A stretch of DNA of 64,000 bases from an uncultured virus (IMG/VR IMGVR_UViG_3300017739_000002) (IMGVR_UViG_3300017739_000002); one strand, 5' to 3'. Positions 5,532 through 63,029 are shown, counted from the stretch's first letter. The notes: a model not told the origin generated them from the sequence alone. Translations and numbers: made by a program.

Positions 5532-6067
5532 CTTATTTCCAATCCTAATTGCTGGATAGACTGTTGTACGCAAAGTGCTTGGACTTTGCAATCTTCTAAT
5601 GCGTTATGTGCCGCAAATTTAATTGCTTTACGTGGGTCTTTAGGCATAATACCAAACAATGTTCTACTGTCCTTAATTTTCCAAAAGGGCCAGGGTATAT
5701 GCATGTCGTATTGCCTATAGATATTTTCTAGTATTCCTATATCAAATACAGGACCTTGACACCATATAGTATCAACACCCACACACCACTTGTTAAGTTC
5801 TGACAAAATATCCTGCACAGGTTTACGATCATGATCACCTAGTGCTTCTTCCATAACTGCTGGATCTTGCTTTTGCCACCATTCAAGTGTGCTTTTATCT
5901 GTAGTTCTGCCTTTACTAAGTTGTTCATCTACTTCATATCTATAGTAAAGTTCACTGTGATGTTCACTTATTTCATTAGGGTTAAATTTAACACCACCAA
6001 TAGTAAGTAAAACTGTATCCGGTTTTGTGCCTAGTGTCTCTAGGTCAATCATAGCATGTGTAGTCAT
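5528..6067 (-). CDS. DEDDh 3'-5' exonuclease (DexA-like)
   Basis: [15 protein letters not shown].., HNALED. Confidence 0.88.
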
Positions 6068-6073
6068 AGTATT

Positions 6074-6101
6074 ATTATACACATGCTATGAAGTTTGTCA
6101 A
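6074..6101 (-). promoter_or_regulatory. Sigma70-type promoter, probably giving a leaderless mRNA
   Basis: TTGACA-N16-TATAAT-N6-ATG. Confidence 0.75.
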
Positions 6102-6102
6102 C

Positions 6103-7062
6103 CTAAAATCCATTAGGAACAATAACATAGTGAATGGATAAAACTACACCAACACTTGCACCAAGACCAATCATCATTTTAATAAAGTCTTTGGTAATTA
6201 AGGGAAATACAGTTCTAAACTTTTCCTTGCCTGTCATAGTAGCCATTGCTAGTTCTCTACCACATAGCAAGCCTACGAATACCCAAGTTGTTGACATTGG
6301 AATATCGTTTATTTCTTTGAAGAACAACAGTATTAGAAAGTATACACAATCAATAATAGTAGCACTTCTAACATATCTTGTATTGTGTTTTTCTAACACA
6401 ATTTTTTGTATCTTACCGCCACCTTCACGGAACATATATCCTAATCCTATAACAAATACAAGACTAATTAGAATCATAAGATCCCATGGTATCTCTCTAG
6501 GTAAGAACACAGCAATATTTGCCATATCATGACTTAACCAAGTAAACCATAAGAATGCTGTCGTAAACCATTGTGCTACTCGCCAATATGTTTTATGTTC
6601 TTCTTTAACAGGTTTTGCTTCGTCAAGTAATTTAGTAACCACAATCCAAATACAATATGCCGCCACGGCCGCTACTGCATATCCCATCATAGATTTTACA
6701 AGCATCTTCTCTAATACAAATGTACTAGCGAATGCACTTAGAACTAAAAATGACGTACTAACAGGTACGCCAATTCTCGTGAGTATTAATAGTAGTCCTG
6801 GTGCCATAGCATGGTACCATTGTATTTCTTGAAACGGAATTTTATTAAGTCTTCCATAACTGATATCACCTCCGTTAGTATACCAGCCATACCAGAGAGT
6901 ATAAAGGAGAACTGCACTTGCCGCTCCCCACATAACTTTCCAATTAAATCTCTCATTATTTGATGCGATCCATGTACCGAGAGTCTGTACACTATCGTTT
7001 GCTATTACTGAATAACCGGCGAATAAAAAGCCAACTGCCATCCATAGAGTGAGTGCGTCCAT
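6103..7062 (-). CDS. Multi-pass membrane protein, possibly a PiT/PHO4-like ion transporter
   Basis: About 10 TM segments; duplicated motifs ANDSVQTLG / SHDMANIA and PVSTS / PMSTT; GGAGG SD. Confidence 0.65.
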   Translation of the reverse strand: MDALTLWMAVGFLFAGYSVIANDSVQTLGTWIASNNERFNWKVMWGAASAVLLYTLWYGWYTNGGDISYGRLNKIPFQEIQWYHAMAPGLLLILTRIGVPVSTSFLVLSAFASTFVLEKMLVKSMMGYAVAAVAAYCIWIVVTKLLDEAKPVKEEHKTYWRVAQWFTTAFLWFTWLSHDMANIAVFLPREIPWDLMILISLVFVIGLGYMFREGGGKIQKIVLEKHNTRYVRSATIIDCVYFLILLFFKEINDIPMSTTWVFVGLLCGRELAMATMTGKEKFRTVFPLITKDFIKMMIGLGASVGVVLSIHYVIVPNGF

Positions 7063-7080
7063 AATTTCCTCCATTTGCTT

Positions 7081-7131: not shown

Positions 7132-7695
7132 TTACTTATGCCAATTCAAAGGATTTGGCATCCAATGGTTATTCATTCGCTCAGGATGCCAAAGCACACA
7201 ACCAATGTCCTTTAACTTCCAGGCTTCTGTATTACCATCGTCATCTTTAGCAAGTACTTCAGCACCCGCTGGAATACTTCCTAAAACTTCTTCATGTCTA
7301 CTGCATACTTCAACTCTAGCACCAGTAGCATTTACATAATGATTCTTTTTATGATTTGGATCTGGTGTTATACTACCACCAAAACTTACAGTTAAAAATT
7401 GTGTGCCTCTACTAATACCTAGTATCTTCTTTTCATAAGCCATTGCTAGATCAAGCACATGTTTCTCTACAACTAATCTATCATAGTTATATTGCCAGTT
7501 ATCTTTGATCATACTATTACCGCCACTGAATACAACTAAGTCTGCTTCAGTAATAGTTTGTGTTCTTAAAAATTTTAGATTGTTTGGAATGGGCAATAAT
7601 TCATGTCCTTTGAACATGGAATAAAAACCATGATCTAAGGAATCGTAAGGACCATTTCTATAATCAATCACTCGTTGAGTAATTGCTATTTTCAT
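7132..7695 (-). CDS. Class I glutamine amidotransferase-like (peptidase C26 family), Ser at the nucleophile position
   Basis: FSGGN, ILGISRGTQ, WHPER. Confidence 0.8.
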   Translation of the reverse strand: MKIAITQRVIDYRNGPYDSLDHGFYSMFKGHELLPIPNNLKFLRTQTITEADLVVFSGGNSMIKDNWQYNYDRLVVEKHVLDLAMAYEKKILGISRGTQFLTVSFGGSITPDPNHKKNHYVNATGARVEVCSRHEEVLGSIPAGAEVLAKDDDGNTEAWKLKDIGCVLWHPERMNNHWMPNPLNWHK

Positions 7696-7994
7696 TAGGA
7701 CTCTTCTATTGTTACTTCTAATGGATAATTATTTCGACGTGAAATAGTTGTTGTTTCTACACACTTCTGTTCTGCCACTTCAAAACTATATGCGCCTGCA
7801 ACGCCACGTCCTTTATTATGAATCTCTATCATAATTTGTTTTGCAGTCTCGACATCTTTATTAAAGACTTGTGTCAAGACACTAATGACAAAGTCCATTG
7901 GAGTCGTATCATCATTAAGCATGATGACATGATATTTATTAGGTGCTTTGAGCTTGGTTACACCAGGCTTTTCAATTGTTTGATTCTCTGTCAT
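7695..7994 (-). CDS. clpS: ATP-dependent Clp protease adaptor ClpS
   Basis: YHVIMLNDDTTPMDFV, M.EIH.KG.GV.G.Y..EVAE.K. Confidence 0.95.
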   Translation of the reverse strand: MTENQTIEKPGVTKLKAPNKYHVIMLNDDTTPMDFVISVLTQVFNKDVETAKQIMIEIHNKGRGVAGAYSFEVAEQKCVETTTISRRNNYPLEVTIEES

Positions 7995-8045
7995 ACTAAT
8001 ATTTATCTTTTGTTGGGGGAGAGCATTGCCCTCCCCTCTGCTTGA

Positions 8046-8486
8046 TTATTTGATTTCAATTGTTTTTGGCTTCTTAGCGTCTGGAATAATACGCTCTAAA
8101 TCTACATAAAGCATACCATCTTCTAGCTTCGCGCCATTAACTACTACGTCATCACTAAGTGTAAAGACTCTACGGAATTTACGTGTAGCAATTCCCCTAT
8201 GCAACCAACTTGTTTTATCAGACTCAACTTCCATTTCATCTGGGTTGTGTTCAATAACTAAGTTGTTTTCCTCTGTAGTTACAACAAGGTCAGCCTTCTT
8301 CACACCTGCGAGTGCAATCTCGATCTGGAATTGATTTCCGTCTTTCCTAATGTTGTATGGAGGATAGCCAGTTGACTGGCCTGCGTTTTCTACGTAGCGG
8401 AACATATCATCAAAGATACGGTCGAATCCTACTGCGTATGGGGTGACTTTGTTCAAGTCGAGGGTTGTTAAATAGTTCTTGTTCAT
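8046..8486 (-). CDS. Small heat shock protein Hsp20 (IbpA-like)
   Basis: GFDR, GYPPYNI, LHRGIA.R.F.R.F.L, GMLYVDL, P.TIEI. Confidence 0.95.
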   Translation of the reverse strand: MNKNYLTTLDLNKVTPYAVGFDRIFDDMFRYVENAGQSTGYPPYNIRKDGNQFQIEIALAGVKKADLVVTTEENNLVIEHNPDEMEVESDKTSWLHRGIATRKFRRVFTLSDDVVVNGAKLEDGMLYVDLERIIPDAKKPKTIEIK

Positions 8487-8540
8487 AATAATCTCCTTTT
8501 AAGCAAGATACTTTGTAGGCCCTTTTTGGCACCTACATAT
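8484..8540 (-). promoter_or_regulatory. ROSE-like RNA thermometer in the Hsp20 5' UTR
   Basis: AUCUUGCU-UAAA-AGGAGAU hairpin sequesters the SD with a bulged G; upstream hairpin at 8514-8537; TTGACA-N17-TATATT promoter just upstream. Confidence 0.75.
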
Positions 8541-8584
8541 ATAATATAACAACAAAACATCTTGTTGTCAAGTATATTTATCAA

Positions 8585-9235
8585 TTATTTTAGTAAGTTA
8601 GGTTTTTTGTGATTACTTTTGTAACTTACCCACTTAAAACCATGTCTTTGTATTTGGAATTTATTTTCGTGTTTTATGCCATATCCTAACCCAATACTCA
8701 AATTAGGAAATACTTCATCTTCTTCTGCATCAAGATCTGGAAAATTTGGAAAACATTTAGATAGCAATTCAAAGTATTCAGTACGTAATTCGTTAATAGG
8801 TCTTTGGTCAATACCTTCTCTACATCCTATAATACATGTATCAAGATCATATTCTAATGCTTTATTTACAATAGCACCTGCATGAAAAAATATGTTATTT
8901 TCTTGTATTTGACACTGATCATTTCCTGTATATGGTTTATCATGAGTTGTAGCATTGCATACAAAACTGTGTAAAACATATGGAGCATCTAATAGTTGAC
9001 CAAAGTGTTCTATCATTCCATTGTGTTTATTATCATAATATATATTTTTTACAAGCCAGTATACTAATGCACGATGCTGAGGTTTATTTGTTCGTAGCAA
9101 AGCCCAATAATGGTCATGTTGTGTAACAAAAGATGGCACTTTAAGCACAACACGTGAAAGTTCACGCATTACGTGTGAAGGAATAATTTTAGTGGTATCG
9201 AAATCTCTTGCGAAATATCTATCTTCCCAATTCAT
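8585..9235 (-). CDS. Nitroreductase-like fold protein
   Basis: R..R.FD..K.IP, VPS, LDTCIIGC, SIGLGY. Confidence 0.55.
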   Translation of the reverse strand: MNWEDRYFARDFDTTKIIPSHVMRELSRVVLKVPSFVTQHDHYWALLRTNKPQHRALVYWLVKNIYYDNKHNGMIEHFGQLLDAPYVLHSFVCNATTHDKPYTGNDQCQIQENNIFFHAGAIVNKALEYDLDTCIIGCREGIDQRPINELRTEYFELLSKCFPNFPDLDAEEDEVFPNLSIGLGYGIKHENKFQIQRHGFKWVSYKSNHKKPNLLK

Positions 9236-9759
9236 TTTAATTTTGCACTTATTCTATTTCCACTGTTTTGTACACTTTCAAGTGTAGTACCGCACATTTC
9301 TGCAAACTTTGCAAGCAATTGGCGTGCAACATCTTGACGCCCACGTTCTCTACCTTTTAGTGTTACTGTAATTTGTACTGTATCATTTTTATCTAAGAAC
9401 TTACGTGCATTGCGAGTTTTTGTTTCTAAATCGTGTTGCTCAATGTTAAGCGTCATTCTAATTTCTTTTGACTGCTTTACATGTTCTCTCTGCTTTTTCT
9501 TTTGTTCTTTTTCTTTTTGTTTCTTTTCATATAGAAACTTGTTAAGACTAGTAATTTTGCATACTGGCGGATCTGCCTTTTCAGCGATCAACACCAAATC
9601 TAGCCCTCTAGAATTTGCTAATTGTTGTGCAGATTGGATTGGCATTATATTTGACTCTCCATCCACATCATTTACACGTACCGTTGCATGTCTAATATGT
9701 TCGTTACAAGGTACTAAAACTTTCTTTTCTCGTTTTCTATCGAATCTGTTGTTACGCAA
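9232..9759 (-). CDS. infC: Translation initiation factor IF-3
   Basis: NEHIR..VRV, GLDLVLI..A.PPVCKI, KEIR...I..HD..TK, KGRE; probable TTG start at 9759 behind AAGGAGG. Confidence 0.93.
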   Translation of the reverse strand: MRNNRFDRKREKKVLVPCNEHIRHATVRVNDVDGESNIMPIQSAQQLANSRGLDLVLIAEKADPPVCKITSLNKFLYEKKQKEKEQKKKQREHVKQSKEIRMTLNIEQHDLETKTRNARKFLDKNDTVQITVTLKGRERGRQDVARQLLAKFAEMCGTTLESVQNSGNRISAKLK

Positions 9760-10969: not shown

Positions 10970-11415
10970 AAAGGTCCTTGTAATTCTGTTACTATAAATT
11001 GTTCTATTTCATCAATAGATCTAAATTGGTAATACTTGCCTTCTGCACTAATAATTCTAAGTACATCTCGCTTACTACCTTTTCTGTTTACAAACAATGT
11101 CCACTTACCTTGTGGAATAGGTCTTGTAAGTGCTACACATAAATCTACATATTCACATGTATCCATATCAACAACCATAAGGTCTGCTTGTCTGCTTACA
11201 AAATATTCCCATGCAACATTGTTTTCTGTTGTAATAGCGTCACTCTCAAAAAAGACTAGACTGCTAATAATATAACGTTCTAGTAAATCTTTAATCTTTG
11301 TTTTAAATTCTTTATCCTGACTACAAATTAATACTGAAATACCGTCATCAGTAAGGTACAGATCAGGTGCAGTTACCGTATAACTGCTATTATCGTAAAC
11401 CATTTTGTTAATCAC
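10966..11415 (-). CDS. Hypothetical protein (weak receiver-like alpha/beta pattern)
   Basis: 149-aa ORF coupled to clpX. Confidence 0.6.
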   Translation of the reverse strand: MINKMVYDNSSYTVTAPDLYLTDDGISVLICSQDKEFKTKIKDLLERYIISSLVFFESDAITTENNVAWEYFVSRQADLMVVDMDTCEYVDLCVALTRPIPQGKWTLFVNRKGSKRDVLRIISAEGKYYQFRSIDEIEQFIVTELQGPL

Positions 11416-14181: not shown

Positions 14182-15051
14182 TTATGCTTTCTGTTGTGCC
14201 AACCATTGTTGTGCAATACGGTTACTTGGAATCTGTTGACTCCAACTACCAATTTGGTTAAAGGCAGAATTTAAATGTTGTTCAACATCTTGTCCATCAC
14301 TATTATCAATGATGATCATGTTTTGTTTAAAATATCTTTGGAACTTTCCAATATTGTTTTGTACACTACTCCACATACTTTTAACTTCTTCTGGTGGCAA
14401 GGTGCGATCACGTTTTTCGTTACGTGCTAATGCTGTTTCTAAATCTGTGTTTACAAAAACCATTAGTGTTTCATAACCCAACTTTTTAAGTTTTTCACTC
14501 ATTGTTACAATTTTTACGTAATCTTTTCCAGTGCCATCCATTACCAATCCTAGTCTACCCACATTTGTATATGTTTCCTGTCTTCTTTTAGTAATGTCTT
14601 TTGCTTTATCTCTTGTTTCTTGACCTTGTGGACTATAAATGTTATCTGGTGTAGCATCCATGCCCATTTGTTTTAACATTTTTTCAAATGCTATATCACT
14701 GTTAATAATTTTAAAACCCATTGCCTGAAAGCCACTATTTTTAACAACAAAACTTTTTCCTGCTCCAGGGCCTCCAGCAGTAAAGACTGCCTTAAAAATT
14801 GCAGGATCATTTGGGCCTTCATTAATATCGTCCTGTTGTGCTAAGGCCGCCTTACGTTTTTCGTACTTAGATGATTTATCTAACTTCTTAAGATTTTTAG
14901 GACCTTTTTTATCTAGTTTTACTAGACGCTCAGGTAATTCTTGCTCTTCTTTCTTAACGCAATTAGGCACACGTTTTCCGAACATGGTTTTCATGCCCTT
15001 CTTCATGTAGCCTTTCCAGCATTTTTCCGTAAGTATTTCGTGTATTTGCAT
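14182..15051 (-). CDS. P-loop kinase (zeta toxin/AAA_33-like) with N-terminal CWKGY..CV module
   Basis: AGGPGAGKS, INSD, LVMDGTG, ALARN..R.R. Confidence 0.75.
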   Translation of the reverse strand: MQIHEILTEKCWKGYMKKGMKTMFGKRVPNCVKKEEQELPERLVKLDKKGPKNLKKLDKSSKYEKRKAALAQQDDINEGPNDPAIFKAVFTAGGPGAGKSFVVKNSGFQAMGFKIINSDIAFEKMLKQMGMDATPDNIYSPQGQETRDKAKDITKRRQETYTNVGRLGLVMDGTGKDYVKIVTMSEKLKKLGYETLMVFVNTDLETALARNEKRDRTLPPEEVKSMWSSVQNNIGKFQRYFKQNMIIIDNSDGQDVEQHLNSAFNQIGSWSQQIPSNRIAQQWLAQQKA

Positions 15052-15059
15052 ATATGTAT

Positions 15060-15650
15060 TTATGCAGGTTTGCGTTCTATAACCTTATCTGCCAGCCCAT
15101 ATTCAACTGCTTCTTGAGCTGTCATAAAATTATCTCTATCCATATCTTTTTCAAACTGTTCGTATGTTTTGCCTTTTGTATTGTGCTTTACATACAGTTC
15201 TGTCAAACGTTGTTTGAGATATGTAATTTCTTTATACTGTATTTCAATATCAGACTGTTTACCGCCTGCTCCACCACTAGGCTGGTGAATCATTGTACGA
15301 CTATTTGGTAGTACAAATCTCTGTCCTGGTTCTCCTGCTTGTGCTAGGAAACTTCCCATACTACAAGCCTGCCCCATTACAATAGTAGATACTGGTGCAT
15401 TAATAAATTGCATTGTATCGTAAATTGCCATACCAGATGTAATTACTCCACCTGGTGAATTGATATAAAAATTAATTGGTTCTTCAGAATTCTGGCTTTC
15501 TAAAAATAACATTTGTGCAACAATTAAATTTGCACTCATATCTTGTACATCGCCATTTAAAATAACAACTCTGTCTTTTAGTAGACGACTGTAAATATCA
15601 TAACTACGCTCGCCTCTGCCTGTTTGTTCAACCACTACTGGTACTAACAT
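15060..15650 (-). CDS. clpP: ATP-dependent Clp protease proteolytic subunit
   Basis: [35 protein letters not shown] (Ser-His-Asp triad). Confidence 0.97.
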
Positions 15651-17801: not shown

Positions 17802-18037
17802 TTGGTCCTACGTAACAACTTAGCTCTAAGATCATTTAATTCATTATCCCTCTGAGAATTTTCTAGTACTTGTGGAGTGTCTTGCACCTTACGTGCTAGT
17901 TCTTGTGCATTAAGTTTATCTCTATCAATCAGTTTATTCATCTGTGCGATTCTATCCTTTAGAACACGAGTACGTTCTTCAAGTAAATATTGTCGCTCCA
18001 TTTCTTCAACTGTTAATTTAGGTTTACTCCACCACAT
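17798..18037 (-). CDS. Hypothetical coiled-coil protein
   Basis: TAAATA-N5-ATG start. Confidence 0.65.
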   Translation of the reverse strand: MWWSKPKLTVEEMERQYLLEERTRVLKDRIAQMNKLIDRDKLNAQELARKVQDTPQVLENSQRDNELNDLRAKLLRRTK

Positions 18038-18055
18038 ACATATATTTATGTTACC

Positions 18056-20979: not shown

Positions 20980-21689
20980 TTTGCTGTAAAAATACTATAA
21001 CCTAATTTTTGTTTTATACCAGTTTCTAAGAAATTTGCCGCACAATGTATACGTGCTGTATCAAATACAATTATATCTCCAGGTTTCCACTCTACTATCT
21101 GTTCAACTGTTAATCCAGTAAATCGTTGTATAGGAAGATGAGTAAAATACTTGTTGTAAAGTAACTCATCAAACACTTCTCCAGTATAACCTATAAGTTC
21201 ACTATTGTCAAGTAAGTCTTGGTTATAATACACTTGTGGTTTATCGTGGTTTTTGTGCTTGGGCTGTCCGCCATGTCGCAATTTAACAGGACCATCTAAG
21301 TAGCATTGATCAAATACTGCAAAGTTTGTTGGTTTTTCTATTTCTAATGGTATAACTACTGTCTTATACAAGTCAGGTATCCAACGAACGCTATCATCAT
21401 TATGTAGTATATGAGGTTGGTCTACTTTATAAAAATTTGTAGCAAAAGTCCAATGATCGCCAATGAATTCTGTAACAAATTTATCTGCTTTTAACCACCA
21501 ATCTGTATGTGCATCTTTATTAGGATAGTAATCATAAGTTACAGGGCCTGTGTTTTTGTGATTCTTTGGACCTGCTTCCCATGCCTCTAATAAGTCTGAC
21601 ATAAGATCCTTAGGTACTACATTTTCGTAAACTTTAGTTGGTTCTAACCTGCTAAGAATTGCTTGTTTTTGCTCTTCTGTTCTTAACAT
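20976..21689 (-). CDS. Putative 2OG-Fe(II)/cupin oxygenase
   Basis: HND...VIPL...PGDIIVFD..RIHCA...K; start set at 21689 (TAAATA-N5-ATG). Confidence 0.6.
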   Translation of the reverse strand: MLRTEEQKQAILSRLEPTKVYENVVPKDLMSDLLEAWEAGPKNHKNTGPVTYDYYPNKDAHTDWWLKADKFVTEFIGDHWTFATNFYKVDQPHILHNDDSVRWIPDLYKTVVIPLEIEKPTNFAVFDQCYLDGPVKLRHGGQPKHKNHDKPQVYYNQDLLDNSELIGYTGEVFDELLYNKYFTHLPIQRFTGLTVEQIVEWKPGDIIVFDTARIHCAANFLETGIKQKLGYSIFTAK

Positions 21690-21702
21690 AAATATATTTA
21701 TG
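21687..21702. promoter_or_regulatory. Palindromic divergent late promoter containing both start codons
   Basis: CATAAATATATTTATG is its own reverse complement. Confidence 0.75.
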
Positions 21703-25782: not shown

Positions 25783-25987
25783 CTAAAATCTTTTGTCCAT
25801 GTTCAGCCCAAGCCTTTTCAAACTTTTCTTCGTATTCATACAATGGGGCACCATTGCCTCCAGCATACCATAAACGTTTGAAGTAGCCATTTTGTGAAGA
25901 CATTACTGTATCCAATGACGTATTGAAATGCCCTTTAACCATATGAAAAAGCCTATATGCTTCTTTAATTTCTGCATCAGTGTACAT
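25739..25987 (-). CDS. Hypothetical protein
   Basis: 82-aa ORF after TAAATA-N7. Confidence 0.65.
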   Translation of the reverse strand: MYTDAEIKEAYRLFHMVKGHFNTSLDTVMSSQNGYFKRLWYAGGNGAPLYEYEEKFEKAWAEHGQKILDDYSNLRNKKRNTE

Positions 25988-26001
25988 GTATTACTATTTA
26001 T

Positions 26002-36398: not shown

Positions 36399-37073
36399 TT
36401 ATGCAAGTTCATAAAATTCTTGCAACCTTAACGCCCATTTTGTCTCCCAATCTGGAAACTCTTTTTCGTCTACCTCAAATAATTGCCACTGACAATCTTT
36501 ACTACACATAAAGATTGCAATGTTTTCTATTTTAGTTTCATACAATTCATTGTGTGCTAGAGCATAGGCGGCGCCTTGCATAAAATAATCGTCAATCCAT
36601 TCACGTTTCTTAGGTTTATTAGTTTGTTTAAAATCCATAATAGAATGTTTACCTTTGTAAACACCAACTAAGTCTGTTGTGCCAGCATATAGTTGTGGAT
36701 AACATAAGTTTACTTCACTACCCCAAACTTCATCTAAGTCTGGCTCAATGTTTTGCTTAATTACATCAGCCATTTTCTCAGATAGTATGGTTGTTTGACC
36801 TGTGTAGTTTTCGTTCTTTACCCAGTATTCAAGTATGGCATGCATACGTGAACCATTGTCTGAAGCTTCTGTTACAATACGTTGTGCCTCTTTTTCACCA
36901 ACACGCTTCTTCCAATTAGCAAGAGCTTGTCTTTGTTTTTGTGGTTTTGTTTTATCCAAAATTGTTGTAACACTAGGGACAGGATTGCCATACGGATTTT
37001 CGTATAAACGTTTACCGTTTACACTTTTGCGTTTAAATTCTTGATATGGATAGGGAGAAGTTATTTTTAACAT
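36399..37073 (-). CDS. PD-(D/E)xK exonuclease
   Basis: PSVTTIL, G..MH, E, YAGTTD, MDFKQ, Q..AYA. Confidence 0.88.
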   Translation of the reverse strand: MLKITSPYPYQEFKRKSVNGKRLYENPYGNPVPSVTTILDKTKPQKQRQALANWKKRVGEKEAQRIVTEASDNGSRMHAILEYWVKNENYTGQTTILSEKMADVIKQNIEPDLDEVWGSEVNLCYPQLYAGTTDLVGVYKGKHSIMDFKQTNKPKKREWIDDYFMQGAAYALAHNELYETKIENIAIFMCSKDCQWQLFEVDEKEFPDWETKWALRLQEFYELA

Positions 37074-37079
37074 TATCTA

Positions 37080-37108
37080 AATATACAATAAAAATGTAAG
37101 GAAGTCAA
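37080..37108 (-). promoter_or_regulatory. Sigma70 promoter, probably leaderless
   Basis: TTGACT-N17-TATATT-N6-ATG. Confidence 0.65.
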
Positions 37109-44485: not shown

Positions 44486-44524
44486 AGTAATCTCCTTACT
44501 TGTATTTATCCAATAAATAGTTTT

Positions 44525-45220
44525 ATGCAGATAAAAACAGTTAACGTATTTGGCTGTAGCCAGTCATATGGTGTACCTGAATATACTTTACCAAATGACT
44601 TGGGGCATGGATCCTGGGTTTATTGGCTTAGTGTATGGAATCCAGACATAATTTTTAACAATTACAGTTATCCAGGTACTAGTCTTTTGTATTCATGTCA
44701 TGCTTATGATCAATTTAAAGATTCAGCTGACATAAACATAATACAAATGACTGGTCCTCATAGAATAACTTACTATACACCCTTATTAGATCCTTTTGAA
44801 ATACCTCTTGGTGCTGTTACAGGTAATTATAACAAAATTACTGATCATAAATGGTTCTATAATCACTTTGTATTTAAAACTCACCTAAACGGAACTGAAA
44901 ACGCTGTAGATCATAATCATTGGCATCAAAACTGGTTGCCTTTTGTGCAAGAGTACTGGAAAGTTAAACCTCATTCGTATGGTTTAATAGAACACGTAGC
45001 ACTTATGGACTATTATGGTTCTAGAGCTGACTTTTCTTTCTCCCACGCTAAGATGTTTTCTAAAAAACAACACCCATTTATACCCAACATACTTAATCAA
45101 ATGTCTGATGAAACCTATCTGTCATTTAAATGTGATGAACCCGGCCACTTTAATGAGGCAGGGCACAAGTTTATGGCAAAATGGGTTGCACAGAACACTA
45201 ATCTTGCTTTTTCAGAATAG
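44525..45220 (+). CDS. SGNH/GDSL-hydrolase-like protein
   Basis: FGCSQSYG, NYS.PGTS, GHFNEAGH; TAAATA-N5-ATG start. Confidence 0.7.
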   Translation: MQIKTVNVFGCSQSYGVPEYTLPNDLGHGSWVYWLSVWNPDIIFNNYSYPGTSLLYSCHAYDQFKDSADINIIQMTGPHRITYYTPLLDPFEIPLGAVTGNYNKITDHKWFYNHFVFKTHLNGTENAVDHNHWHQNWLPFVQEYWKVKPHSYGLIEHVALMDYYGSRADFSFSHAKMFSKKQHPFIPNILNQMSDETYLSFKCDEPGHFNEAGHKFMAKWVAQNTNLAFSE

Positions 45221-46574: not shown

Positions 46575-47584
46575 CTACAATAACCCCTCGCTAACACTTT
46601 AATTTTTGTTGTATTTGTTACAACACTATCTAATATACTACGCACAGTATATAGTCTTCCATACTTCATCGCGGCATCCGCGGCGTCTTTACAATTATCC
46701 CATTCAGGAAATGCAACACCCCAACCTCTATCTATTGCCTTATTAACCATTTTCATACCAGCACTGTCTGCATCCGGTAATACTATAACACGTTTGTTCA
46801 AACTGTCAATAATATTCGCCTGATCATCATTAATATTATTACTTCCTATAGCAACACCATCAGTAAAGATAGCATCTAATTGTCCTTCTGTTACAATCAC
46901 TACGTTTTTATCTTTAGATTGACTATCAAGTCCATACACAAAATTACTTTTAGGTTGTTGATTGTAATACTTCGGCATACCCTCCGGAGGATTGCCGATC
47001 CATCTCGCAGTATAACCTACAGGAATACCTTTATAAAAGAAAGGCACAATAAAACGCTTATACATTCTTGCAGGTGTTTTGGTATCACTATACCATATTC
47101 TGTTATCTGTTATGTCAAATCCACGTTCATACAAATACTCAACTGCATTTACAAAATCTGGACTACCACCAGCATAGTCTTTAATAGGAACAGCACCTTC
47201 TGGCAATGCCATTTTGCCCCAATCAATAATTACTGGCTCATTTCTTTTCTTTTGTTTTAAAAGTAGTGTTGCTACATCTTGTTCTTTTAATAGTTCAAGT
47301 TGAAGTCGTTGTATATCACTTTCTTCAATACCAAACTGCTTCATAAGACGTTTTAATCTACTGCTAAAGTATTTGCCTTCAGCCCAGCCAGTTGTATAGT
47401 TACAATTAAAACAGTTGTACCTAAACTTATCTTCTTCAAATAAGAATCCGCCTCTACCCTTTGTATCAGGACGGCTTTCACCATTCTGTACACACATAGG
47501 ACAGTTACCGGATACCCAACCTGTAGGGTTAGAGCTCCAGTTCGCAGGAATCATATTTCTTACGAAGTCTAATACTAATGTCAT
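46571..47584 (-). CDS. DNA primase (T4 gp61-like)
   Basis: CPMC..CFNC zinc motif, YL.ERG, KY, EGQLDA, DAD.AG, KD. Confidence 0.9.
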   Translation of the reverse strand: MTLVLDFVRNMIPANWSSNPTGWVSGNCPMCVQNGESRPDTKGRGGFLFEEDKFRYNCFNCNYTTGWAEGKYFSSRLKRLMKQFGIEESDIQRLQLELLKEQDVATLLLKQKKRNEPVIIDWGKMALPEGAVPIKDYAGGSPDFVNAVEYLYERGFDITDNRIWYSDTKTPARMYKRFIVPFFYKGIPVGYTARWIGNPPEGMPKYYNQQPKSNFVYGLDSQSKDKNVVIVTEGQLDAIFTDGVAIGSNNINDDQANIIDSLNKRVIVLPDADSAGMKMVNKAIDRGWGVAFPEWDNCKDAADAAMKYGRLYTVRSILDSVVTNTTKIKVLARGYCR

Positions 47585-47590
47585 GTAGTT

Positions 47591-47619
47591 ATATTACAGT
47601 CTAAATACGACTTTGTCAA
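47591..47619 (-). promoter_or_regulatory. Sigma70 promoter, probably leaderless (primase)
   Basis: TTGACA-N17-TAATAT-N6-ATG. Confidence 0.7.
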
Positions 47620-48418: not shown

Positions 48419-48480
48419 GTTTATACCTCATATTGTATTTATTCAAATCAGAGCAAAATTTAGATACTAAATATCTAGTG

Positions 48481-48855
48481 ATGCACAATAACAAAGACTT
48501 TTTAGAGGAATATCCTTTCCTGACAGTTATTGCATATGCAGGTAATGAATATTTAGGTATATTACAAAATATCGATACTCAAATTTGCACGATGTATGTA
48601 TATGACAGGTTAAAGGATATGGAACATAAGCGTCAATTTTTAGAGCTTGGCGAAGAATGGTGGTGGGAAACAAACAGACGACTGCCAATCAATATTGCCT
48701 TGCTCAACAGATGGCCTTTCGGTTATACCAGCCAAAGTTTTAACGTAAAACAAATGGAAATTATAGCAGGGCCTGAAGTGCGCCTTAGTAATAGTATTAC
48801 TAAACGCATTAAGAGAAGAAGTATAAATCTACTTAAGAAGGGTGGTTCTCTTTAA
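48481..48855 (+). CDS. Hypothetical conserved phage protein
   Basis: YPFL, EY.GI.QN, FLELGE.WWWE.NR..PINI; TAAATA upstream. Confidence 0.7.
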   Translation: MHNNKDFLEEYPFLTVIAYAGNEYLGILQNIDTQICTMYVYDRLKDMEHKRQFLELGEEWWWETNRRLPINIALLNRWPFGYTSQSFNVKQMEIIAGPEVRLSNSITKRIKRRSINLLKKGGSL

Positions 48856-51905: not shown

Positions 51906-53353
51906 TTATACTTTACCTTTTCTATAGTAAAAGGATAGTTTGCTTCTTTGTAAAAAGTCTTACGTTCTCGCAAGTGCCGTTTACTAAACTTGGCAGTACT
52001 TGTAATATCCCATATTTCAACATGATCTTTGTCTTGTGCTTTACGAACACCACGACCTATTGACTGTATAACACGGACAAAACTTTTGCCAGGCTCAAGA
52101 AGCACAAGATTAAATATGCGAGGAATGTTAATACCGACAGCCGCCACTCCGTATGTTGCCACAACCACGTGATTCGTTCCCTCGTTAATTTCTGTGTATG
52201 CATCTTTTCTATCCGTTGTTTTCATTACACCACTGACAAATTCAGCATCTGGAATATTTTCTAAAAGCAAATTACCTGCTTTAATTCGATCTACAAGTAC
52301 AAGTGTATTGCCACTCTTCCTTATATTTTCAATCAAACCACTTACGTACTTCATTCTATCTTTATCACTTGTAAGATATGTAAGTTCGCTCTGATAGTTT
52401 GAGTATTCAACACTCTCTTCCATTTGTACTACATTCACATGGCAGTTACTTAGTACGCCTAATTCTTGTAGTTCACTGGCGGCTAGTTTATTAACTACCT
52501 CACCTAAACAAGCTCTGAGTGATACTTGTTCGTGTTTTGCTTTGGGTATTGTGCCTGTCAGCCCCCAACGCAAAGGAATATGTGCAAAGTCTTTTGTTAA
52601 CAATTCTTTTAGTACATCTGCCTTTGCTTGATGTACCTCGTCAACAATTACACATACAACATCTTCAGCAAAGTCCTGCAATCCAAAGTCAGTTTTGCCG
52701 TCACGAAATTGTTTCTTAATACTATTTAAACTCTGCCATGTACAAATTGTATGTGTTTTGCCAATTTCTTTTTTGTCGCCAAAATACACACCAACATCTA
52801 ATCCCATATTAGCATAGTCTTCATATGTTTGTCTTACAAGATCCTTGTTTGGTACAATAACAATACTTCTACCATACTTCTCCGCACGTTCACTAAGGCT
52901 TGCAGTTACAAGAGTTTTACCTGCACCTGTTGCAATTTCCTGCAAACAATGTGGAGTTTCTAAAAATTTGTTTACAATTTCTACTTGATAATCACGTAGC
53001 ATAACTGGCTGTCCTTCAACAGGATGTCCTTTGGGCCATGTAATATTACTATAACTATCTTCTTTTACTTCAGTAAAATCAAAGTCCCATACATTACGTT
53101 GATCATCTAATTCAATAGAATAATTTTCTGCAACAATTATAGGAATAATAATATCCAATAGATTTGTATACGTAACACCACCTATTGTAAAGTAACTCAC
53201 ACAACCATCCCATCTGCCTAGTTTATATGCTGGCACATGATATGCATAAGGGAGAAAGAACTTTAGTTCCTTCTCAATTTTCTTTCTTGTATCAAGATCA
53301 AGTCCTTCAATCTTACAGTTAACTTCATCTTTCAATATAATTTTACAAGCCAT
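51902..53353 (-). CDS. uvsW: SF2 helicase UvsW
   Basis: WDG, LRDYQ, ATGAGKT, VDEVH, GLTGT, GINIP, QSIGRG.R. Confidence 0.92.
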   Translation of the reverse strand: MACKIILKDEVNCKIEGLDLDTRKKIEKELKFFLPYAYHVPAYKLGRWDGCVSYFTIGGVTYTNLLDIIIPIIVAENYSIELDDQRNVWDFDFTEVKEDSYSNITWPKGHPVEGQPVMLRDYQVEIVNKFLETPHCLQEIATGAGKTLVTASLSERAEKYGRSIVIVPNKDLVRQTYEDYANMGLDVGVYFGDKKEIGKTHTICTWQSLNSIKKQFRDGKTDFGLQDFAEDVVCVIVDEVHQAKADVLKELLTKDFAHIPLRWGLTGTIPKAKHEQVSLRACLGEVVNKLAASELQELGVLSNCHVNVVQMEESVEYSNYQSELTYLTSDKDRMKYVSGLIENIRKSGNTLVLVDRIKAGNLLLENIPDAEFVSGVMKTTDRKDAYTEINEGTNHVVVATYGVAAVGINIPRIFNLVLLEPGKSFVRVIQSIGRGVRKAQDKDHVEIWDITSTAKFSKRHLRERKTFYKEANYPFTIEKVKYK

Positions 53354-53358
53354 AATAC

Positions 53359-53387
53359 ACTATAACGCTAATTTGTTGATTTGTCAA
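53359..53387 (-). promoter_or_regulatory. Sigma70 promoter, probably leaderless (uvsW)
   Basis: TTGACA-N17-TATAGT-N5-ATG. Confidence 0.7.
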
Positions 53388-53390
53388 TAT

Positions 53391-53420
53391 AAAAAAAGCC
53401 AGGGGTGTTACCCCCTGGCA
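53391..53420 (-). terminator. Intrinsic terminator
   Basis: GCCAGGGG-loop-CCCCTGGC followed by a T run. Confidence 0.88.
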
Positions 53421-56567: not shown

Positions 56568-56572
56568 ATAGG

Positions 56573-57944: not shown

Positions 57945-57961
57945 ATATACCTCCAATAATT

Positions 57962-57985
57962 AGGAGAGGGCCGAAGCCCCCTCTG
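57962..57985 (-). terminator. cUUCGg hairpin after gp32 (terminator or stabiliser)
   Basis: GAGGGGGC-TTCG-GCCCTCTC. Confidence 0.7.
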
Positions 57986-57986
57986 T

Positions 57987-58997: not shown

Positions 58998-59073
58998 AAT
59001 TATCTCCTATATTAGCCTTTGTTAGTTTTATGTGTCGGAACATATTTGCTCCTTTGCCTTTATTAGCCTATAC

Positions 59074-59102
59074 AGTGTATACTCTTCCTTGCCCACTGTC
59101 AA
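59074..59102 (-). promoter_or_regulatory. Sigma70 promoter for the SSB gene
   Basis: TTGACA-N17-TACACT. Confidence 0.75.
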
Positions 59103-59116
59103 GCAAATACTTGATT

Positions 59117-60733
59117 TTATTGAACTTTTTTACGTAATGTAAGAAGTACACCTTCGTCAAGTGGAATTTCCTTTTGTGATTCGAATGTTGGATTTGTGTT
59201 CAAATACTTAACAATCGCTTCAATTAATTTTGTGTCGTTTGCACTAACACCCTCTACAACCATGGAATGCAGTGAACTAAAATATTCACGTGCATTTTCA
59301 TTAGTTACATTATTTGCGAGATAAGATAGCTGTCGTGCTAGAATATCCTGTTCCTCAATCACATGATTGTTAGGATGTTCAGGATCATTCTCATTTAGAC
59401 TTAGTCCAATGTCTGTTTGTGTTTCAATCATTGAATATAGATTTTTAATCGTCTCTTGCACAACGCTATCTCTCTCTTGTTTTTCAGCTACAATACGGCC
59501 TACACGGCTGAGAACATCATTTAGTTCTTCAGTTGTAAACGTATTATATAGAAACTTTTCTGTAATGTCAACACTTTTTTCAGTATTATCTGAATTATTT
59601 TCAGACACTGCAAAATTGTTATAACCTCTGAGTGTTGAGAGACTGTTGATAGTGTTTTTGAGTTCTGAAAGTTTGCCCCTTACAGCTTCTACAATTTCAC
59701 TATTACTTTCATTTACAAGTTTGTGTGACTGTACATGTCTTACAAACTTATTGAGGCTTGCTATCTCCTCACACATACTAAGTATTTCTTCACCCTTAGT
59801 ATCATAAGGAGTTCCTCCTTCATTTACGTGCATCGCCATCGCTTTAGCCCCACCCATATACCTATGAGGGAACCTAAATCTTTCGCCTTGTGAGTTTTCA
59901 ATAAACAGTGAGTGAATGTGTCTGCTACGTGATCCACGTACTTCTTCATTTACACCTTTACTATGTTTAATTACCAGCCTAGCATTAGGACTTTCAACAT
60001 AACTTGTTTTTACAGTTCCAAATGGCTTGCTGAACCCTTCAATAATGAGAGCCTCTGATGCATTAATTCTTTGTTTGTTTAATGCTGTACTAATGGCTCT
60101 ATCATAACCTTTTGTAGTTTTACCATTTTTACTTAATGAAAAATTACCTTTGTTATCTGCTGATGTGTTAGCATAACTGTATTTTCCACCCTGTGTACTA
60201 CTTTGGTTTCTAGAATATGTAGCCTTATCTTTACTACCTATTGTTCTACTTGAATCAAAACTTGAGTTGCCTTTATTATCTTGTTTCACACTTGACTTTG
60301 TTGAAACTCTCATCTTTCCTAATGGCTTTCCAGCATTAGGATCTTTAGGCATCTTAATAGCCTGTACTTTCATTTTTGGTTGATTATCAAAATCAAAGTC
60401 AGCTTCATTAACGCTTTGGTGACTAAAGTCTTTTGGTTCTAATTTTTTATCAAATTTTCTCACTGTAAACTCACCTAAATTCTTATGTGTTGCTTTCTTA
60501 ATAGTATTTAGCAATTTTTGGTTATCTGGTATAGAAAAATCTCCTCCTGCCTGTATAACAGTTTCGATATTTCCATCATCTTCACGGACAGTAATCATTA
60601 GGTCTTCTTCATATGCATAGAATCTTGTTGCTTCTTCTGCATTGACAGTTTTTTGTCCTTCAGAAGTAAACATCTTAAGTTTCATATTTGAACCTTTAAT
60701 AATGTTTAAAATTTCTTCGCCTAATGTATCCAT
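59117..60733 (-). CDS. Conserved hypothetical (probable head-associated) protein
   Basis: G..KTSY, RSR.I..LFIEN.QGERF, A.AMA.HV..GG.PYD; TAAATA and AAGGA upstream. Confidence 0.7.
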   Translation of the reverse strand: MDTLGEEILNIIKGSNMKLKMFTSEGQKTVNAEEATRFYAYEEDLMITVREDDGNIETVIQAGGDFSIPDNQKLLNTIKKATHKNLGEFTVRKFDKKLEPKDFSHQSVNEADFDFDNQPKMKVQAIKMPKDPNAGKPLGKMRVSTKSSVKQDNKGNSSFDSSRTIGSKDKATYSRNQSSTQGGKYSYANTSADNKGNFSLSKNGKTTKGYDRAISTALNKQRINASEALIIEGFSKPFGTVKTSYVESPNARLVIKHSKGVNEEVRGSRSRHIHSLFIENSQGERFRFPHRYMGGAKAMAMHVNEGGTPYDTKGEEILSMCEEIASLNKFVRHVQSHKLVNESNSEIVEAVRGKLSELKNTINSLSTLRGYNNFAVSENNSDNTEKSVDITEKFLYNTFTTEELNDVLSRVGRIVAEKQERDSVVQETIKNLYSMIETQTDIGLSLNENDPEHPNNHVIEEQDILARQLSYLANNVTNENAREYFSSLHSMVVEGVSANDTKLIEAIVKYLNTNPTFESQKEIPLDEGVLLTLRKKVQ

Positions 60734-60759
60734 AATTATTTCCTTGTTAAATGTATTTA

Positions 60760-62319
60760 TCACAAAATGCTAAATGGCATAGGTTCTTCATACTCTTCAT
60801 CTTGTGGTTGTCCCTTCAGATCTAAGAATGCCGCATCTTCATACTTAGTTACTTCCAATGCCATACGTACTATAAGCACAGTTGCCATTACAAGATCGTC
60901 AGTCTGTCCTTCTTTTGCTTGGTAACTATTACCCTTTGCACAAAATGTTTTAAGTTCTTGTAATAAATTTCTACTTGCTACTTCAAGTTTATCTGTTTCA
61001 ACCCATTGTTTAAGTTTAGCACATGCTGTCACCTTTGATTTATGTGTAGTTGTAAATCCTCTACGCAATCGTCCTGGTCCAGGTTTTTTCGGTTCTGTCA
61101 ACATTGTACCACGAATGTTTTCTTCACCAAGCTCTTCTAACATCACAAGTGCCGCCTCTCCTAATGTATTATTTTCTATACTATAATATATGCTATCTTC
61201 ATGTACACCTTCAGATACCATAAACTCACATATTTGTTGTATAATTCTTACTTGTCTTTGTATAGTAGTTTTGTTATGTTGCCACTCAGCAACTTGCCTC
61301 ATACCGGGCATTTCATATACTTGTATAGCACTAAAGTCTCCGCCAGTACCTAAACTTGGGTCTAATCCAACAAGATACAACTTATCCTTTTCAGGTTTTT
61401 TATACCAACGCACTTGCCCCATCTTTTCAATAGGATCTTTTGCTGTCATATTAAATAATTTTATACTATCAATAAGTGTTTCATCATAGGCTATAAATTC
61501 ACAGTTATGTTCACGACGGAAACGTTCTTCGCCTATTTTTGATTGTTCTTCTTTTGCCCACTCTTCATCACGATCAGGGTGTACCTGCCATGTAGCAAGA
61601 AAACTTGCAAAGCCATTTCTACCAGTTTTTTGTTCATTGCCATATTCATCAAGCATTTTACGTGCTTCGTTCCAAATCAAAGCAAACTGATCATCGTCCT
61701 GATTTGGAGTACTAGTAATAATACATTTACCACCTGTTGCTAGTGTGGGAGAAAGTGAGGTCCAGAATTCACGTGCAATGTTAGGTCTAACAAATGCAAA
61801 CTCGTCTAAATAAACTAATGAAATGGACAAACCACGTCCAGTATTTTCTGTAGTTGCTTGTGCAATAATACGTGAACCGTTATCAAATTCTAAACTACCT
61901 TTGTTATAACTTGTAACACCTGCACGTACAAAATCTGGAATATGCTCATATGCAAAACGTATACGTTGCATAATTTCCTGAGCTCCTGAATACTTGTGTG
62001 CCGCTATAAGAATAGTTTGATCAGGATTAAACATTGCATACCATAATAAGTATCCTGCCGCACAGGTACTTTTACCTGTTTGTCGTGCAAGCATACTAAC
62101 ACTATATCTAAAATCATGATATGTATCTACTAGATCAACCTGATAAGGATATAATCCAAACTTCATTCTACCCTGTACTGGGTGTTGAATATAACAATAA
62201 TTCATAAGGAAGTATTTTGGATCTTTCATACAAAGAGCCAATTCAGTTAACTGGTGTTCAGTGAACTTCTCCTTTTTATACGGAGTTTTAGTTAATTTTG
62301 TATCTACTGTACCTGCCAT
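60760..62319 (-). CDS. terL: Terminase large subunit (T4 gp17-like)
   Basis: LYPYQ, RQTGKST, YLDEFAF, ITSTPN, GLDP, DDLVMA; start 62319 (TAAATA-N5-ATG). Confidence 0.95.
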   Translation of the reverse strand: MAGTVDTKLTKTPYKKEKFTEHQLTELALCMKDPKYFLMNYCYIQHPVQGRMKFGLYPYQVDLVDTYHDFRYSVSMLARQTGKSTCAAGYLLWYAMFNPDQTILIAAHKYSGAQEIMQRIRFAYEHIPDFVRAGVTSYNKGSLEFDNGSRIIAQATTENTGRGLSISLVYLDEFAFVRPNIAREFWTSLSPTLATGGKCIITSTPNQDDDQFALIWNEARKMLDEYGNEQKTGRNGFASFLATWQVHPDRDEEWAKEEQSKIGEERFRREHNCEFIAYDETLIDSIKLFNMTAKDPIEKMGQVRWYKKPEKDKLYLVGLDPSLGTGGDFSAIQVYEMPGMRQVAEWQHNKTTIQRQVRIIQQICEFMVSEGVHEDSIYYSIENNTLGEAALVMLEELGEENIRGTMLTEPKKPGPGRLRRGFTTTHKSKVTACAKLKQWVETDKLEVASRNLLQELKTFCAKGNSYQAKEGQTDDLVMATVLIVRMALEVTKYEDAAFLDLKGQPQDEEYEEPMPFSIL

Positions 62320-62320
62320 A

Positions 62321-63013
62321 TTAGTATTTACCAAAAGCCCATTGACGTTCTTTACACCACCAACATTCACCACAATGCGTAGTCATCCAACTAGGAGTAT
62401 CTTTATTATGCCTACTTTCCTGTTCACAACTTCGTGTAAATGGAAAAAGTTTATCCATCATTTCAAAATGATTATAAAGATATGCTATAAAGCGTTTATC
62501 AATATTCATCCATGGTTGCCAACGCAATACTTCAGGAGATAGGTTTCTATATGGTGGTCTGCCATGTCCTTCGTCCCTTGCTTCAAATCTACCTTCACGT
62601 AAATGTTCTACATCTACAGATGGGTTTTGTGTTGTGCCTAGTATTGCTACTGTTGTTCCATGTATCTTTGTAATTAGTTTTTCAGTTTCGTTAAGTTCTT
62701 GCCTACGTTGATCATCTGTAAAATATGTGTAGTGACTTTTTATAAGTTCAGTACCTGTAAGTTCTAATACTTTATCTAAGACTGTAGTTGCCCATTTTGC
62801 ATTATACCAACCTTTTACAACGTTTGCACATGTTATAACATGTATTTCAGCATCAGGTATATGCTTCTCACAATATTTAATTAGCATCCATAATAATATT
62901 GCACTATCCGCCCCTCCTGAAATATTAATTACTAATTTTCTGTGGGGAGCAGGAATATAAAATTCTACAGACTGACTATAAGAGTCAGTATAAACGTCAA
63001 TAGGTCTTTCCAT
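62321..63013 (-). CDS. QueC-like PP-loop protein
   Basis: ISGGADSAIL; TRSC...CGECWWCKER; start 63013 (TATAAATA-N5-ATG). Confidence 0.75.
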   Translation of the reverse strand: MERPIDVYTDSYSQSVEFYIPAPHRKLVINISGGADSAILLWMLIKYCEKHIPDAEIHVITCANVVKGWYNAKWATTVLDKVLELTGTELIKSHYTYFTDDQRRQELNETEKLITKIHGTTVAILGTTQNPSVDVEHLREGRFEARDEGHGRPPYRNLSPEVLRWQPWMNIDKRFIAYLYNHFEMMDKLFPFTRSCEQESRHNKDTPSWMTTHCGECWWCKERQWAFGKY

Positions 63014-63029
63014 GTGTGTATTTATAGGA

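Follow-up and report, generated by a model that had tools for sequence, protein, structure and literature searches.

Promoters set against the start codon in a clade of uncultured T4-related giant phages, and the leaderless messages they may produce

Background

Leaderless messages are usually held to be rare curiosities in the phages of Gram-negative hosts that use the Shine-Dalgarno (SD) sequence, and the late transcription of phage T4 is a textbook system with ordinary leaders. The DNA considered here is a stretch of 64,000 nucleotides (nt) from an uncultured virus (IMG/VR IMGVR_UViG_3300017739_000002), called the window throughout, in which T4-like late promoter boxes and host-type sigma70 promoters lie directly against ATG start codons. 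The number of nucleotides between the end of a promoter box and the start codon is written as N5, N6 and so on.

Several described systems share part of this arrangement. In T4, late promoters (gp55, gp33, gp45 clamp) have a TAAATA core, no conserved -35 and an AT-rich stretch from box to start, as do those of the clade studied here. A T4 review puts the first T of the late box TATAAATA at -13 ('A(-13) in place of T'). The cI mRNA of lambda is made from pRM, a sigma70 promoter with its +1 at the A of the AUG and no SD (PMC10491246). In the Thermus phage phiYS40 the middle and late mRNAs are mostly leaderless, and host IF2 is raised and IF3 lowered, according to a review. IF3 genes in huge and jumbo phages are described by Al-Shayeb et al. 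2020 and Iyer et al. 2021, and one survey lists IF3 beside ClpX by accession numbers. For PA5oct, a Pseudomonas jumbo phage, sigma70-like early promoters have been reported, and the transcripts of phiKZ and AR9 explicitly have leaders. No description of leaderless expression for T4-type phages was found in the searchable literature, and the word 'leaderless' does not occur in a 2026 jumbo-phage review.

Promoter spacing in the window and its relatives

Distances from TAAATA to ATG were counted from 0 to 60 nt. In the window N5 occurs 11 times and every other spacing 0 to 5 times, making N5 the sole spike in the histogram; in 100 shuffles N5 occurs 2.64 +/- 1.69 times, and 11 is reached by none. 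Eight of the 11 open a frame of at least 50 codons (Table 1) and the other three (487, 1194, 61818) open no long open reading frame (ORF). These eight are the sites at which the first-pass annotation had described TAAATA, exactly 5 nt and ATG with no SD. All are present as described, and an SD-like 4-mer is found neither at these nor at the four sigma70-type sites below, 12 in total. The box reads ATAAATA at seven of the eight and TATAAATA at one, and all seven occurrences of ATAAATA at N5 in the window open long ORFs. The TAAATA hexamer is depleted in the window, with 67 copies where dinucleotide shuffles predict 115 +/- 10. This suggests that stray late boxes are selected against, and avoidance elsewhere is as expected of a live signal.

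The relatives used are five contigs (G002 to G006) of 86 to 355 kb, whose terminases are 59 to 75% identical to that of the window. One of them, G005, has direct terminal repeats and a CheckV value of 100%, and is complete. A further contig, G001, is the same phage as the window (100% identical proteins) and was left out of the pooled set, which consists of the window and the five relatives, 967 kb in all. Each relative has a two-humped distribution, with 12, 7, 4, 11 and 8 sites at N5, a near-empty stretch at N9-15 and a broad hump at N17-30. In the pooled set there are 50 sites at N5, the next highest spacing having 18, with 1 to 3 at each of N9-15 and 6 to 18 at each of N17-30. Compared with the mean of the remaining spacings, the excess at N5 has a Poisson probability of about 1e-27. 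This peak is limited to ATG (50 sites, against 3 for GTG and 1 for TTG), and SD-like 4-mers are found at 2 of the 50 N5 sites as opposed to 104 of the 152 at N17-30. The spacing histogram that the first-pass annotation had proposed as a check therefore shows N5 enriched over background, both in the window and in the pooled relatives. The promoter-ATG spacing is a property of the clade and not of chance. The geometry of the motif, its enrichment and conservation and the absence of SD are, like the functional skew described below, direct observations.

The four TTGAC(A/T)-N16/17-TAnnnT-N5/6-ATG sites also named by the first-pass annotation are all present (Table 1). They have the sigma70 layout (TTGACA, a spacer of 17 +/- 1 and TATAAT), and this is conserved in their orthologs. 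Twelve strict sigma70-like promoters in the window have a long ORF no more than 60 nt away, four of them at N5/6 and eight at N20-60. The pooled set has 22 such promoters at N6, one at N5, two at N7 and none at N8-10, with a hump at N25-37.

With TATAAATA placed at -13 to -6 as in T4, TAAATA-N5 would put the +1 on the A of the ATG. The -10 hexamer of a sigma70 promoter extends from -12 to -7 and, as it ends at -7, N6 would put the +1 on this same base. The two promoter types are unrelated, and a maximum for each at its own canonical distance from +1 is hard to explain otherwise. RNA polymerase prefers a pyrimidine at -1 and a purine at +1. The base at -1 is a pyrimidine at 44 of the 50 N5 sites and at 80 of the 152 SD-led sites (Fisher p = 4e-6), a bias of the N5 sites that fits this preference. 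No column upstream of -12 is conserved among the N5 sites, i.e. there is no -35. T is found at -4 in 30/50 and at -1 in 36/50, and G+C is low at -5 to -1, giving the AT-rich segment after the box that is typical of T4. The N5 class has the AUG start and the lack of SD that are looked for in leaderless messages; recognition of the 5'-terminal AUG in leaderless mRNA has reportedly been described by Brock et al. in 2008.

N-terminal homology backs seven of the starts (7994, 15051, 62319, 6067, 37073, 47584 and 53353). In the 99 amino acid (aa) ClpS, Pfam ClpS spans residues 16-95 and the PHROG match 3-98, and a start at the following in-frame ATG (7922) would remove part of the domain. PHROG matches begin at residues 7-9 of the kinase-like ATPase, residues 1-43 of which are conserved in G005, and the Pfam and PHROG matches of the Rv2179c-like exonuclease begin at residue 3-4 from ATG 6067. 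Strong hairpins with T-runs stand immediately upstream of the promoters of UvsW (53353; terminator hairpin at 53419-53398) and the QueC-like gene (63013). The terminase box falls within the end of the upstream QueC-like gene.

Table 1. Promoter-start arrangements and translation-related genes of the window
Feature	Position	Strand	Remark
TAAATA (8005-8000)-N5-ATG 7994, ClpS gene 7695-7994	7992..8005	-	no SD
TAAATA-N5-ATG 15051, AAA_33/kinase-like ATPase gene 14182-15051	15049..15062	-	
TAAATA-N5-ATG 18037, 79-aa gene 17798-18037	18035..18048	-	hairpin upstream
Perfect 16-bp palindrome CATAAATATATTTATG, TAAATA-N5-ATG on both strands	21687..21702	both	
TAAATA-N5-ATG 44525, gene 44525-45220	44514..44527	+	back to back with SD-led divergent gene 44237-44482
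TAAATA-N5-ATG 62319, large terminase 60760-62319	62317..62330	-	
TATAAATA-N5-ATG 63013, QueC-like gene 62321-63013	63011..63024	-	directly after hairpin and T-run
TTGACA-N16-TATAAT-N6-ATG 6067, Rv2179c-like exonuclease 5528-6067	6065..6101	-	12/12 consensus match
TTGACT-N17-TATATT-N6-ATG 37073, PD-(D/E)XK exonuclease 36399-37073	37071..37108	-	
TTGACA-N17-TAATAT-N6-ATG 47584, primase 46571-47584	47582..47619	-	10/12 consensus match
TTGACA-N17-TATAGT-N5-ATG 53353, UvsW helicase 51902-53353	53351..53419	-	11/12 consensus match (53387)
Near-leaderless ATAAATA-N7-ATG 25987	25985..26000	-	right after tRNA-Arg
Near-leaderless TAAATA-N7-ATG 48481, or N4-GTG 48478, phrog_11637 gene	48468..48483	+	
SD-led late example: TAAATA, 20-nt leader with AAGGA, ATG 60733, virion structural gene	60731..60759	-	
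Phage IF3, 175 aa: IF3_N, Lys-rich linker, IF3_C	9232..9759	-	
Smr-domain gene, 81 aa	18503..18748	-	E 2.8e-14

The palindrome CATAAATATATTTATG supplies two late boxes and two start codons at once, yielding the starts at both 21689 and 21700. The divergent genes 20976-21689 (-) and 21700-22773 (+) share 12 bp at their 5' ends through it, and the G003 ortholog of the minus-strand gene likewise begins at TAAATA-N5-ATG. A comparable back-to-back pair of N5 starts is found in G004 at about 114162-114193.

Eleven genes of the pooled set, including the terminases of G005 and L009, have TTAAATAT or TAAATA 8 nt before ATG, which may be a second register of the box or a 3-nt leader. Within uvsY, TAAATACTGAG-ATG is conserved in G002 (L089:17262-17507) and G006 (L094:14187-14432) and is absent from the uvsY of the window. 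The frame that starts there has 82 aa and matches no more of UvsY than the C-terminal half; the site may mark an internal late promoter or a short isoform. The stretch 28611-28684 (-) combines a consensus promoter, TTGACA-N16-TATAGT, with an imperfect hairpin (GTGAGTT...AACTCAC) after it, in which TATAAAT is found. The ATG at 28668, annotated for a 114-aa ORF, sits within the spacer of this promoter, so the start of that ORF is doubtful.

SD-led genes, orthologs and gene function

The second class of late-type starts in the window has eight members (2723, 22739, 35162, 36374, 38975, 44482, 48418 and 60733). For four of them the first-pass annotation had noted normal leaders, and TAAATA is indeed found 17-21 nt upstream of 36374, 44485 (the real start being 44482), 48418 and 60733, with GAGG, AGGAG, GAGGT or AAGGA as the SD-like stretch. 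Its proposal of two message classes is thus supported by the sequence, one with the start codon at the predicted +1 and no SD and the other with a 17-35 nt leader and an SD.

The layout is retained among orthologs with 60-78% protein identity. UvsW, primase and the PD-(D/E)XK exonuclease keep -35, -10 and N6 (range N5-N8) although the letters of the spacer differ, which points to selection on the layout and not on the letters. For UvsW, G002 to G006 all retain the -35/-10 pair, 6-7 nt before ATG. The primase orthologs of G002, G003, G004 and G006 have N6, and the exonuclease has its promoter at N6 in G002 and G006 and at N8 in G003.

Other genes have changed class. Related terminase loci were fetched (80, of which three were cut), leaving 77 with upstream sequence. 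TAAATA-N5-ATG is present in 34 of these (18 distinct upstream sequences) and TAAGTA-N5-ATG in four, 23 have an SD-like motif instead, some with a GTG start, and the other 16 include eight with TAAATA at N4-N8. The DNA ligase is SD-led in the window (2723; TAAATA at N18, GAGGT) and has TAAATA-N5-ATG in G002 (L087:7137-8108). ClpS, at N5 in the window, is SD-led in G002 and G005. On these comparisons the predicted leaderless and the SD-led designs interconvert easily in evolution.

The two classes differ in what they encode. PHROGs were run on 47 of the 50 N5 genes, the other three running across the boundary of a stretch. Of the 104 genes at N17-30 that have an SD, 96 were included: the first 98 references, from which two duplicates were removed. 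A virion or packaging PHROG (head, packaging, connector, tail) is the best hit for 6/47 N5 genes and 39/96 SD-led genes (Fisher p = 0.001), or, among annotated genes only, for 6/23 and 39/60 (p = 0.003). The six N5 genes encode two terminases, two head-closure proteins and two baseplate-wedge proteins, and the SD-led ones include portal, sheath, tube, adaptor and major virion proteins. The late genes with N5 starts are otherwise mostly enzymes or unknowns, and the early-type genes of this design are UvsW, primase and two nucleases. From this skew, the choice between a leaderless start and an SD leader most likely sets the yield of translation.

Comparison with T4 and cultured relatives

The SD-led boxes of the clade stand 17-30 nt before ATG, as in T4. 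T4 itself has no N5 peak: three TAAATA and no TATAAATA are found at N5 and its hump lies at N13-29, whereas half of the boxes here abut the start codon. The T4 consensus is also tighter than that of the clade, where positions -13 and -12 are loose (T in 13/50, A in 33/50), so the box is best seen as a variant of it. Candidate gp55-like genes are present in three relatives: tblastn with T4 gp55 gives E 8e-6 in G005 and weaker matches in G003 (E 0.003) and G004 (E 0.004).

The cultured relatives (PA5oct, Vibrio phage 2.275.O, Phosso, Atu_ph07 and Serratia phage BF), with terminase and UvsW 46-55% identical to those of the window, have no peak. PA5oct has three N5 sites and none of its 24 sigma70-like promoters at N6. 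Vibrio phage 2.275.O has two N5 sites, both apparently inside genes, and none of six sigma70-like promoters at N6. The raw N5 counts of Sinorhizobium phage Phosso, Agrobacterium phage Atu_ph07 and Serratia phage BF lie near the control level (3, 15 and 5, against 2, 9 and 13 in the control). UvsW has an SD leader in both PA5oct and Vibrio phage 2.275.O. The lack of a peak in cultured comparators suggests that the fusion of promoter and ATG is an innovation of the uncultured clade.

The phage IF3

The IF3 of the window (Pfam IF3_N 6e-23, IF3_C 2e-19) is a complete two-domain protein with an ordinary linker, in which the FLYEK and GRE motifs and the last C-terminal strand are kept; solved IF3 chains align with it over residues 18-158 (E 1.5e-30). 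The gene begins with TTG 9759, preceded at 6 nt by AGGAGG, and overlaps the end of clpX; the N-terminus of the protein agrees with homologs that begin MRNNRF. The bacterial infC has a rare AUU start by which IF3 regulates itself; the phage gene, with its TTG, does not share this trait. The phage IF3 belongs to a large family (over 90 related clusters, the contigs reaching 352 kb), and the nearest named bacterium among its homologs is 41% identical. As in the cases of Al-Shayeb et al. and Iyer et al., this is a full-length IF3 in a T4-related giant phage. The accessible text of those two papers does not connect IF3 with leaderless genes, and here the two traits are separable.

The gene lies in a proteostasis cluster at 7695-15650 (-) with ClpP, the kinase-like ATPase, an SNase-like nuclease, a 710-aa membrane-like protein, ClpX, IF3, an unknown gene, Hsp20 and ClpS. 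The order ClpX-IF3-Hsp20-ClpS is the same in G002, and G005 has ClpX-Hsp20-ClpS without IF3.

The first-pass annotation had suggested that a divergent phage IF3, perhaps with the Smr nuclease, biases ribosomes between the two mRNA classes, and that the presence of infC should be correlated with the leaderless fraction across related phages. All four combinations of IF3 and N5 peak occur, with one or two genomes for each. The window and G002 have both. In the complete G005, which has the peak with 11 sites, IF3 is missing: neither an IF3_C match at E<=1 nor a tblastn hit was found. Vibrio phage 2.275.O encodes IF3 and shows no peak, and PA5oct has neither. T4, in which IF3 was not searched for, has no peak. 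Seven IF3 loci found in viral contigs, on fragments of 25-77 kb, were left out of this comparison. The Smr gene has no tblastn hit in G001 to G006. IF3 and the peak thus dissociate both ways and Smr is without a homologue in the relatives, so the proposed bias is not supported. From these genomes the phage IF3 is not linked to the promoter-ATG architecture; it may have a role in the phage of the window alone, for which nothing found here gives support.

Gene content and occurrence of the window

The window covers part of the genome of an uncultured, T4-related giant phage from the sea. Its genes, about 96 and nearly all on the minus strand, were taken by greedy ORF selection without a gene finder, and there are four tRNAs. 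Pfam and PHROGs name a gp32-like single-stranded DNA-binding protein, UvsX, UvsY, UvsW, primase, a DnaB-like helicase and a T4-type large terminase, together with class I ribonucleotide reductase and several virion proteins. They also name ClpP, ClpX, ClpS, Hsp20, the full IF3, the Smr protein, a plastocyanin-like protein and a GMP-reductase/IMPDH-like enzyme. Auxiliary genes are found on the plus strand at 1-1813 (a radical SAM/SPASM pair and a class 3 lipase) and on the minus strand at 2858-3295, 3584-3856 and 4356-5591 (a plastocyanin/azurin-family protein, a DUF1127 protein and the GMP reductase/IMPDH-like enzyme).

The terminase shares 53% identity with its PA5oct counterpart and 46-50% with the terminases of giant phages of Sinorhizobium, Vibrio, Agrobacterium, Erwinia and Serratia. 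A megablast search of 59117-63052 against the phage collection gave no match, no cultured phage being close at the DNA level. The sequence is present in many marine metagenomes, and marine RNA-library runs contain 7-28% of the words of 53300-63100. Short contigs of four marine RNA libraries (X15, X17, X18 and X19; two oligo-dT, one cDNA and one of uncertain type) match 44001-64000 at 99% identity or more. The phage or its transcripts are present at low depth in these four samples.

Discussion

It is probable that this clade builds a large minority of its transcription units with RNA polymerase starting on the A of the start codon; the position of the start, the mode of translation and its purpose are what we infer from the promoter arrangement. 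The late box (core TAAATA; in T4 TATAAATA at -13 to -6) would end 5 nt before the ATG, and the host-type -10 hexamer (-12 to -7), with its TTGACA -35, would end 6 nt before it. The resulting messages would have no leader and no SD, and would be translated by ribosomes that, with initiator tRNA, bind the 5'-terminal AUG directly. Other promoter-proximal genes would have leaders of 17-35 nt with a strong SD. The leaderless design would be used for enzymes, accessory genes and low-copy parts (terminase, primase, UvsW, nucleases and ClpS), and the SD-led design for abundant virion proteins. IF3 would be an ordinary IF3 of the ClpXP/ClpS/Hsp20 cluster, outside this architecture.

Several observations weigh against such an explanation. 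The +1 comes from promoter geometry, and the RNA-library contigs on 44001-64000 are short and shallow and show no starts. The core TAAATA was fixed by the design of the search, and the bases beside it are loose, as given above. The spacing is not absolute, with pooled shoulders at N4 (7), N7 (8) and N8 (11), and at five of the 12 window sites a GTG, TTG or ATG lying in frame further upstream is a possible alternative start. T4 gp55 finds no homologue by tblastn in the window, which is a 64-kb fragment, nor in G002 and G006. N5 genes do not have less structure in their 5' coding ends than SD-led genes: the mean minimum free energy of +1 to +40 is -3.21 as compared with -2.59 (one-sided p = 0.91), and p = 0.26 for +1 to +25. 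A 5' coding end free of structure, which the literature gives as one mark of efficient leaderless mRNAs, is therefore not seen. The functional skew counts orthologs of six related genomes repeatedly, so that its cells are not independent and its p-values are generous. Neither the four tRNAs nor the homologs of IF3 point to a particular host.

An alternative is that the ATGs are not 5'-terminal and that the genes are read from longer upstream transcripts by translational coupling or 70S scanning, the box serving downstream or internal needs or acting as an AT-rich landing element for ribosomes. Most of the genes do lie in long same-strand arrays, where read-through transcripts are likely, the terminase box is inside the preceding gene, and both the shoulders around N5 and the dependence of the +1 on geometry leave room for it. 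It is nevertheless very unlikely, since it would have to accommodate peaks of two unrelated promoter types at their own canonical distances (N5 and N6), a nearly empty N9-15, a pyrimidine bias at -1 that is particular to the N5 class and a peak particular to ATG. Terminators stand directly upstream of 53353 and 63013, read-through could not supply both of the divergent starts in the palindrome at 21687-21702, and orthologs exchange the box for an SD instead of keeping both. It is also possible to accept that the messages are leaderless and to deny them regulatory meaning: a host that translates leaderless mRNA well would let leaders be dropped as genome economy, with the skew as a by-product of operon heads. 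Leaderless phage transcriptomes are known where hosts use such messages, as in phiYS40; the free toggling of ligase (N18 with SD in the window, N5 in G002) and, in reverse, of ClpS, and the lack of a structural signature in the 5' coding ends, would agree with it. We consider this unlikely, however, because two thirds of the late genes at N17-30 have an SD-like 4-mer, many of the AGGAG type, so that the host ribosome clearly uses SD. An SD leader is the consistent choice for portal, sheath, tube and major virion genes (39/96 against 6/47), and the peak is missing from the cultured relatives examined, which infect Pseudomonas, Vibrio, Sinorhizobium, Agrobacterium and Serratia.

The idea that the leaderless class and a divergent phage IF3, perhaps with Smr, form one translation-takeover system, shifting ribosomes to phage leaderless messages or off host mRNAs, is highly improbable. 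It is attractive in that the window and G002 combine IF3 with the peak and that, in the literature, IF3 dosage changes leaderless translation, the leaderless middle and late mRNAs of phiYS40 accompany changed host IF2 and IF3 levels, and surveys of huge phages propose that phage IF1 and IF3 redirect translation. The sign is wrong, however: according to a review more IF3 inhibits leaderless translation, and phiYS40 lowers IF3. The complete G005 has its 11 N5 sites without IF3, and has the ClpX-Hsp20-ClpS cluster without it as well, whereas Vibrio phage 2.275.O, with IF3, has two N5 sites, a background level. PA5oct lacks both traits and T4 lacks the peak. Nothing marks the phage protein, with its two domains, FLYEK, GRE and last strand, as a relaxed variant, and Smr is absent from all relatives.

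An AUG-fused promoter as the preferred explanation resembles phiYS40 in that a large phage places a whole temporal class of genes on leaderless messages, with IF3 discussed as a lever. It is unlike phiYS40 in that the sister gene class uses strong SD sequences, and in that the fusion to start codons extends to early-type as well as late-type promoters. The phage of the window also adds an IF3 gene, the opposite sign to the lowering in phiYS40, and its IF3 is not linked to the architecture. The host of phiYS40 is naturally rich in leaderless mRNA, and the Thermus phage P23-45 reportedly has leaderless middle and late mRNAs like those of phiYS40. In lambda, cI is a single regulatory gene of a temperate phage, whereas here there are dozens of sites per genome, conserved in a clade of virulent-type giant phages.

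A tentative extension is that in uncultured aquatic T4-related phages the two classes form a two-tier code in a host that uses SD, in which the AUG-fused promoter would mark enzymes, accessory and low-copy genes and the SD would mark abundant virion proteins. Dosage would be written in the distance from promoter to start and rewired by small insertions and deletions, and IF3, where carried, would tune the tiers. It may, for example, damp the leaderless tier or protect SD-led initiation late in infection.

Conclusions

To judge by promoter spacing, roughly half of the late transcripts in this clade of abundant marine giant phages, and a fifth of the early-type ones, appear to begin on AUG. Gene finders that demand an SD will misplace such starts. 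A phage IF3 gene should not be taken as a marker of leaderless translation. The natural pairs of putative leaderless and SD-led orthologs provide material for asking what leaderless initiation is for.

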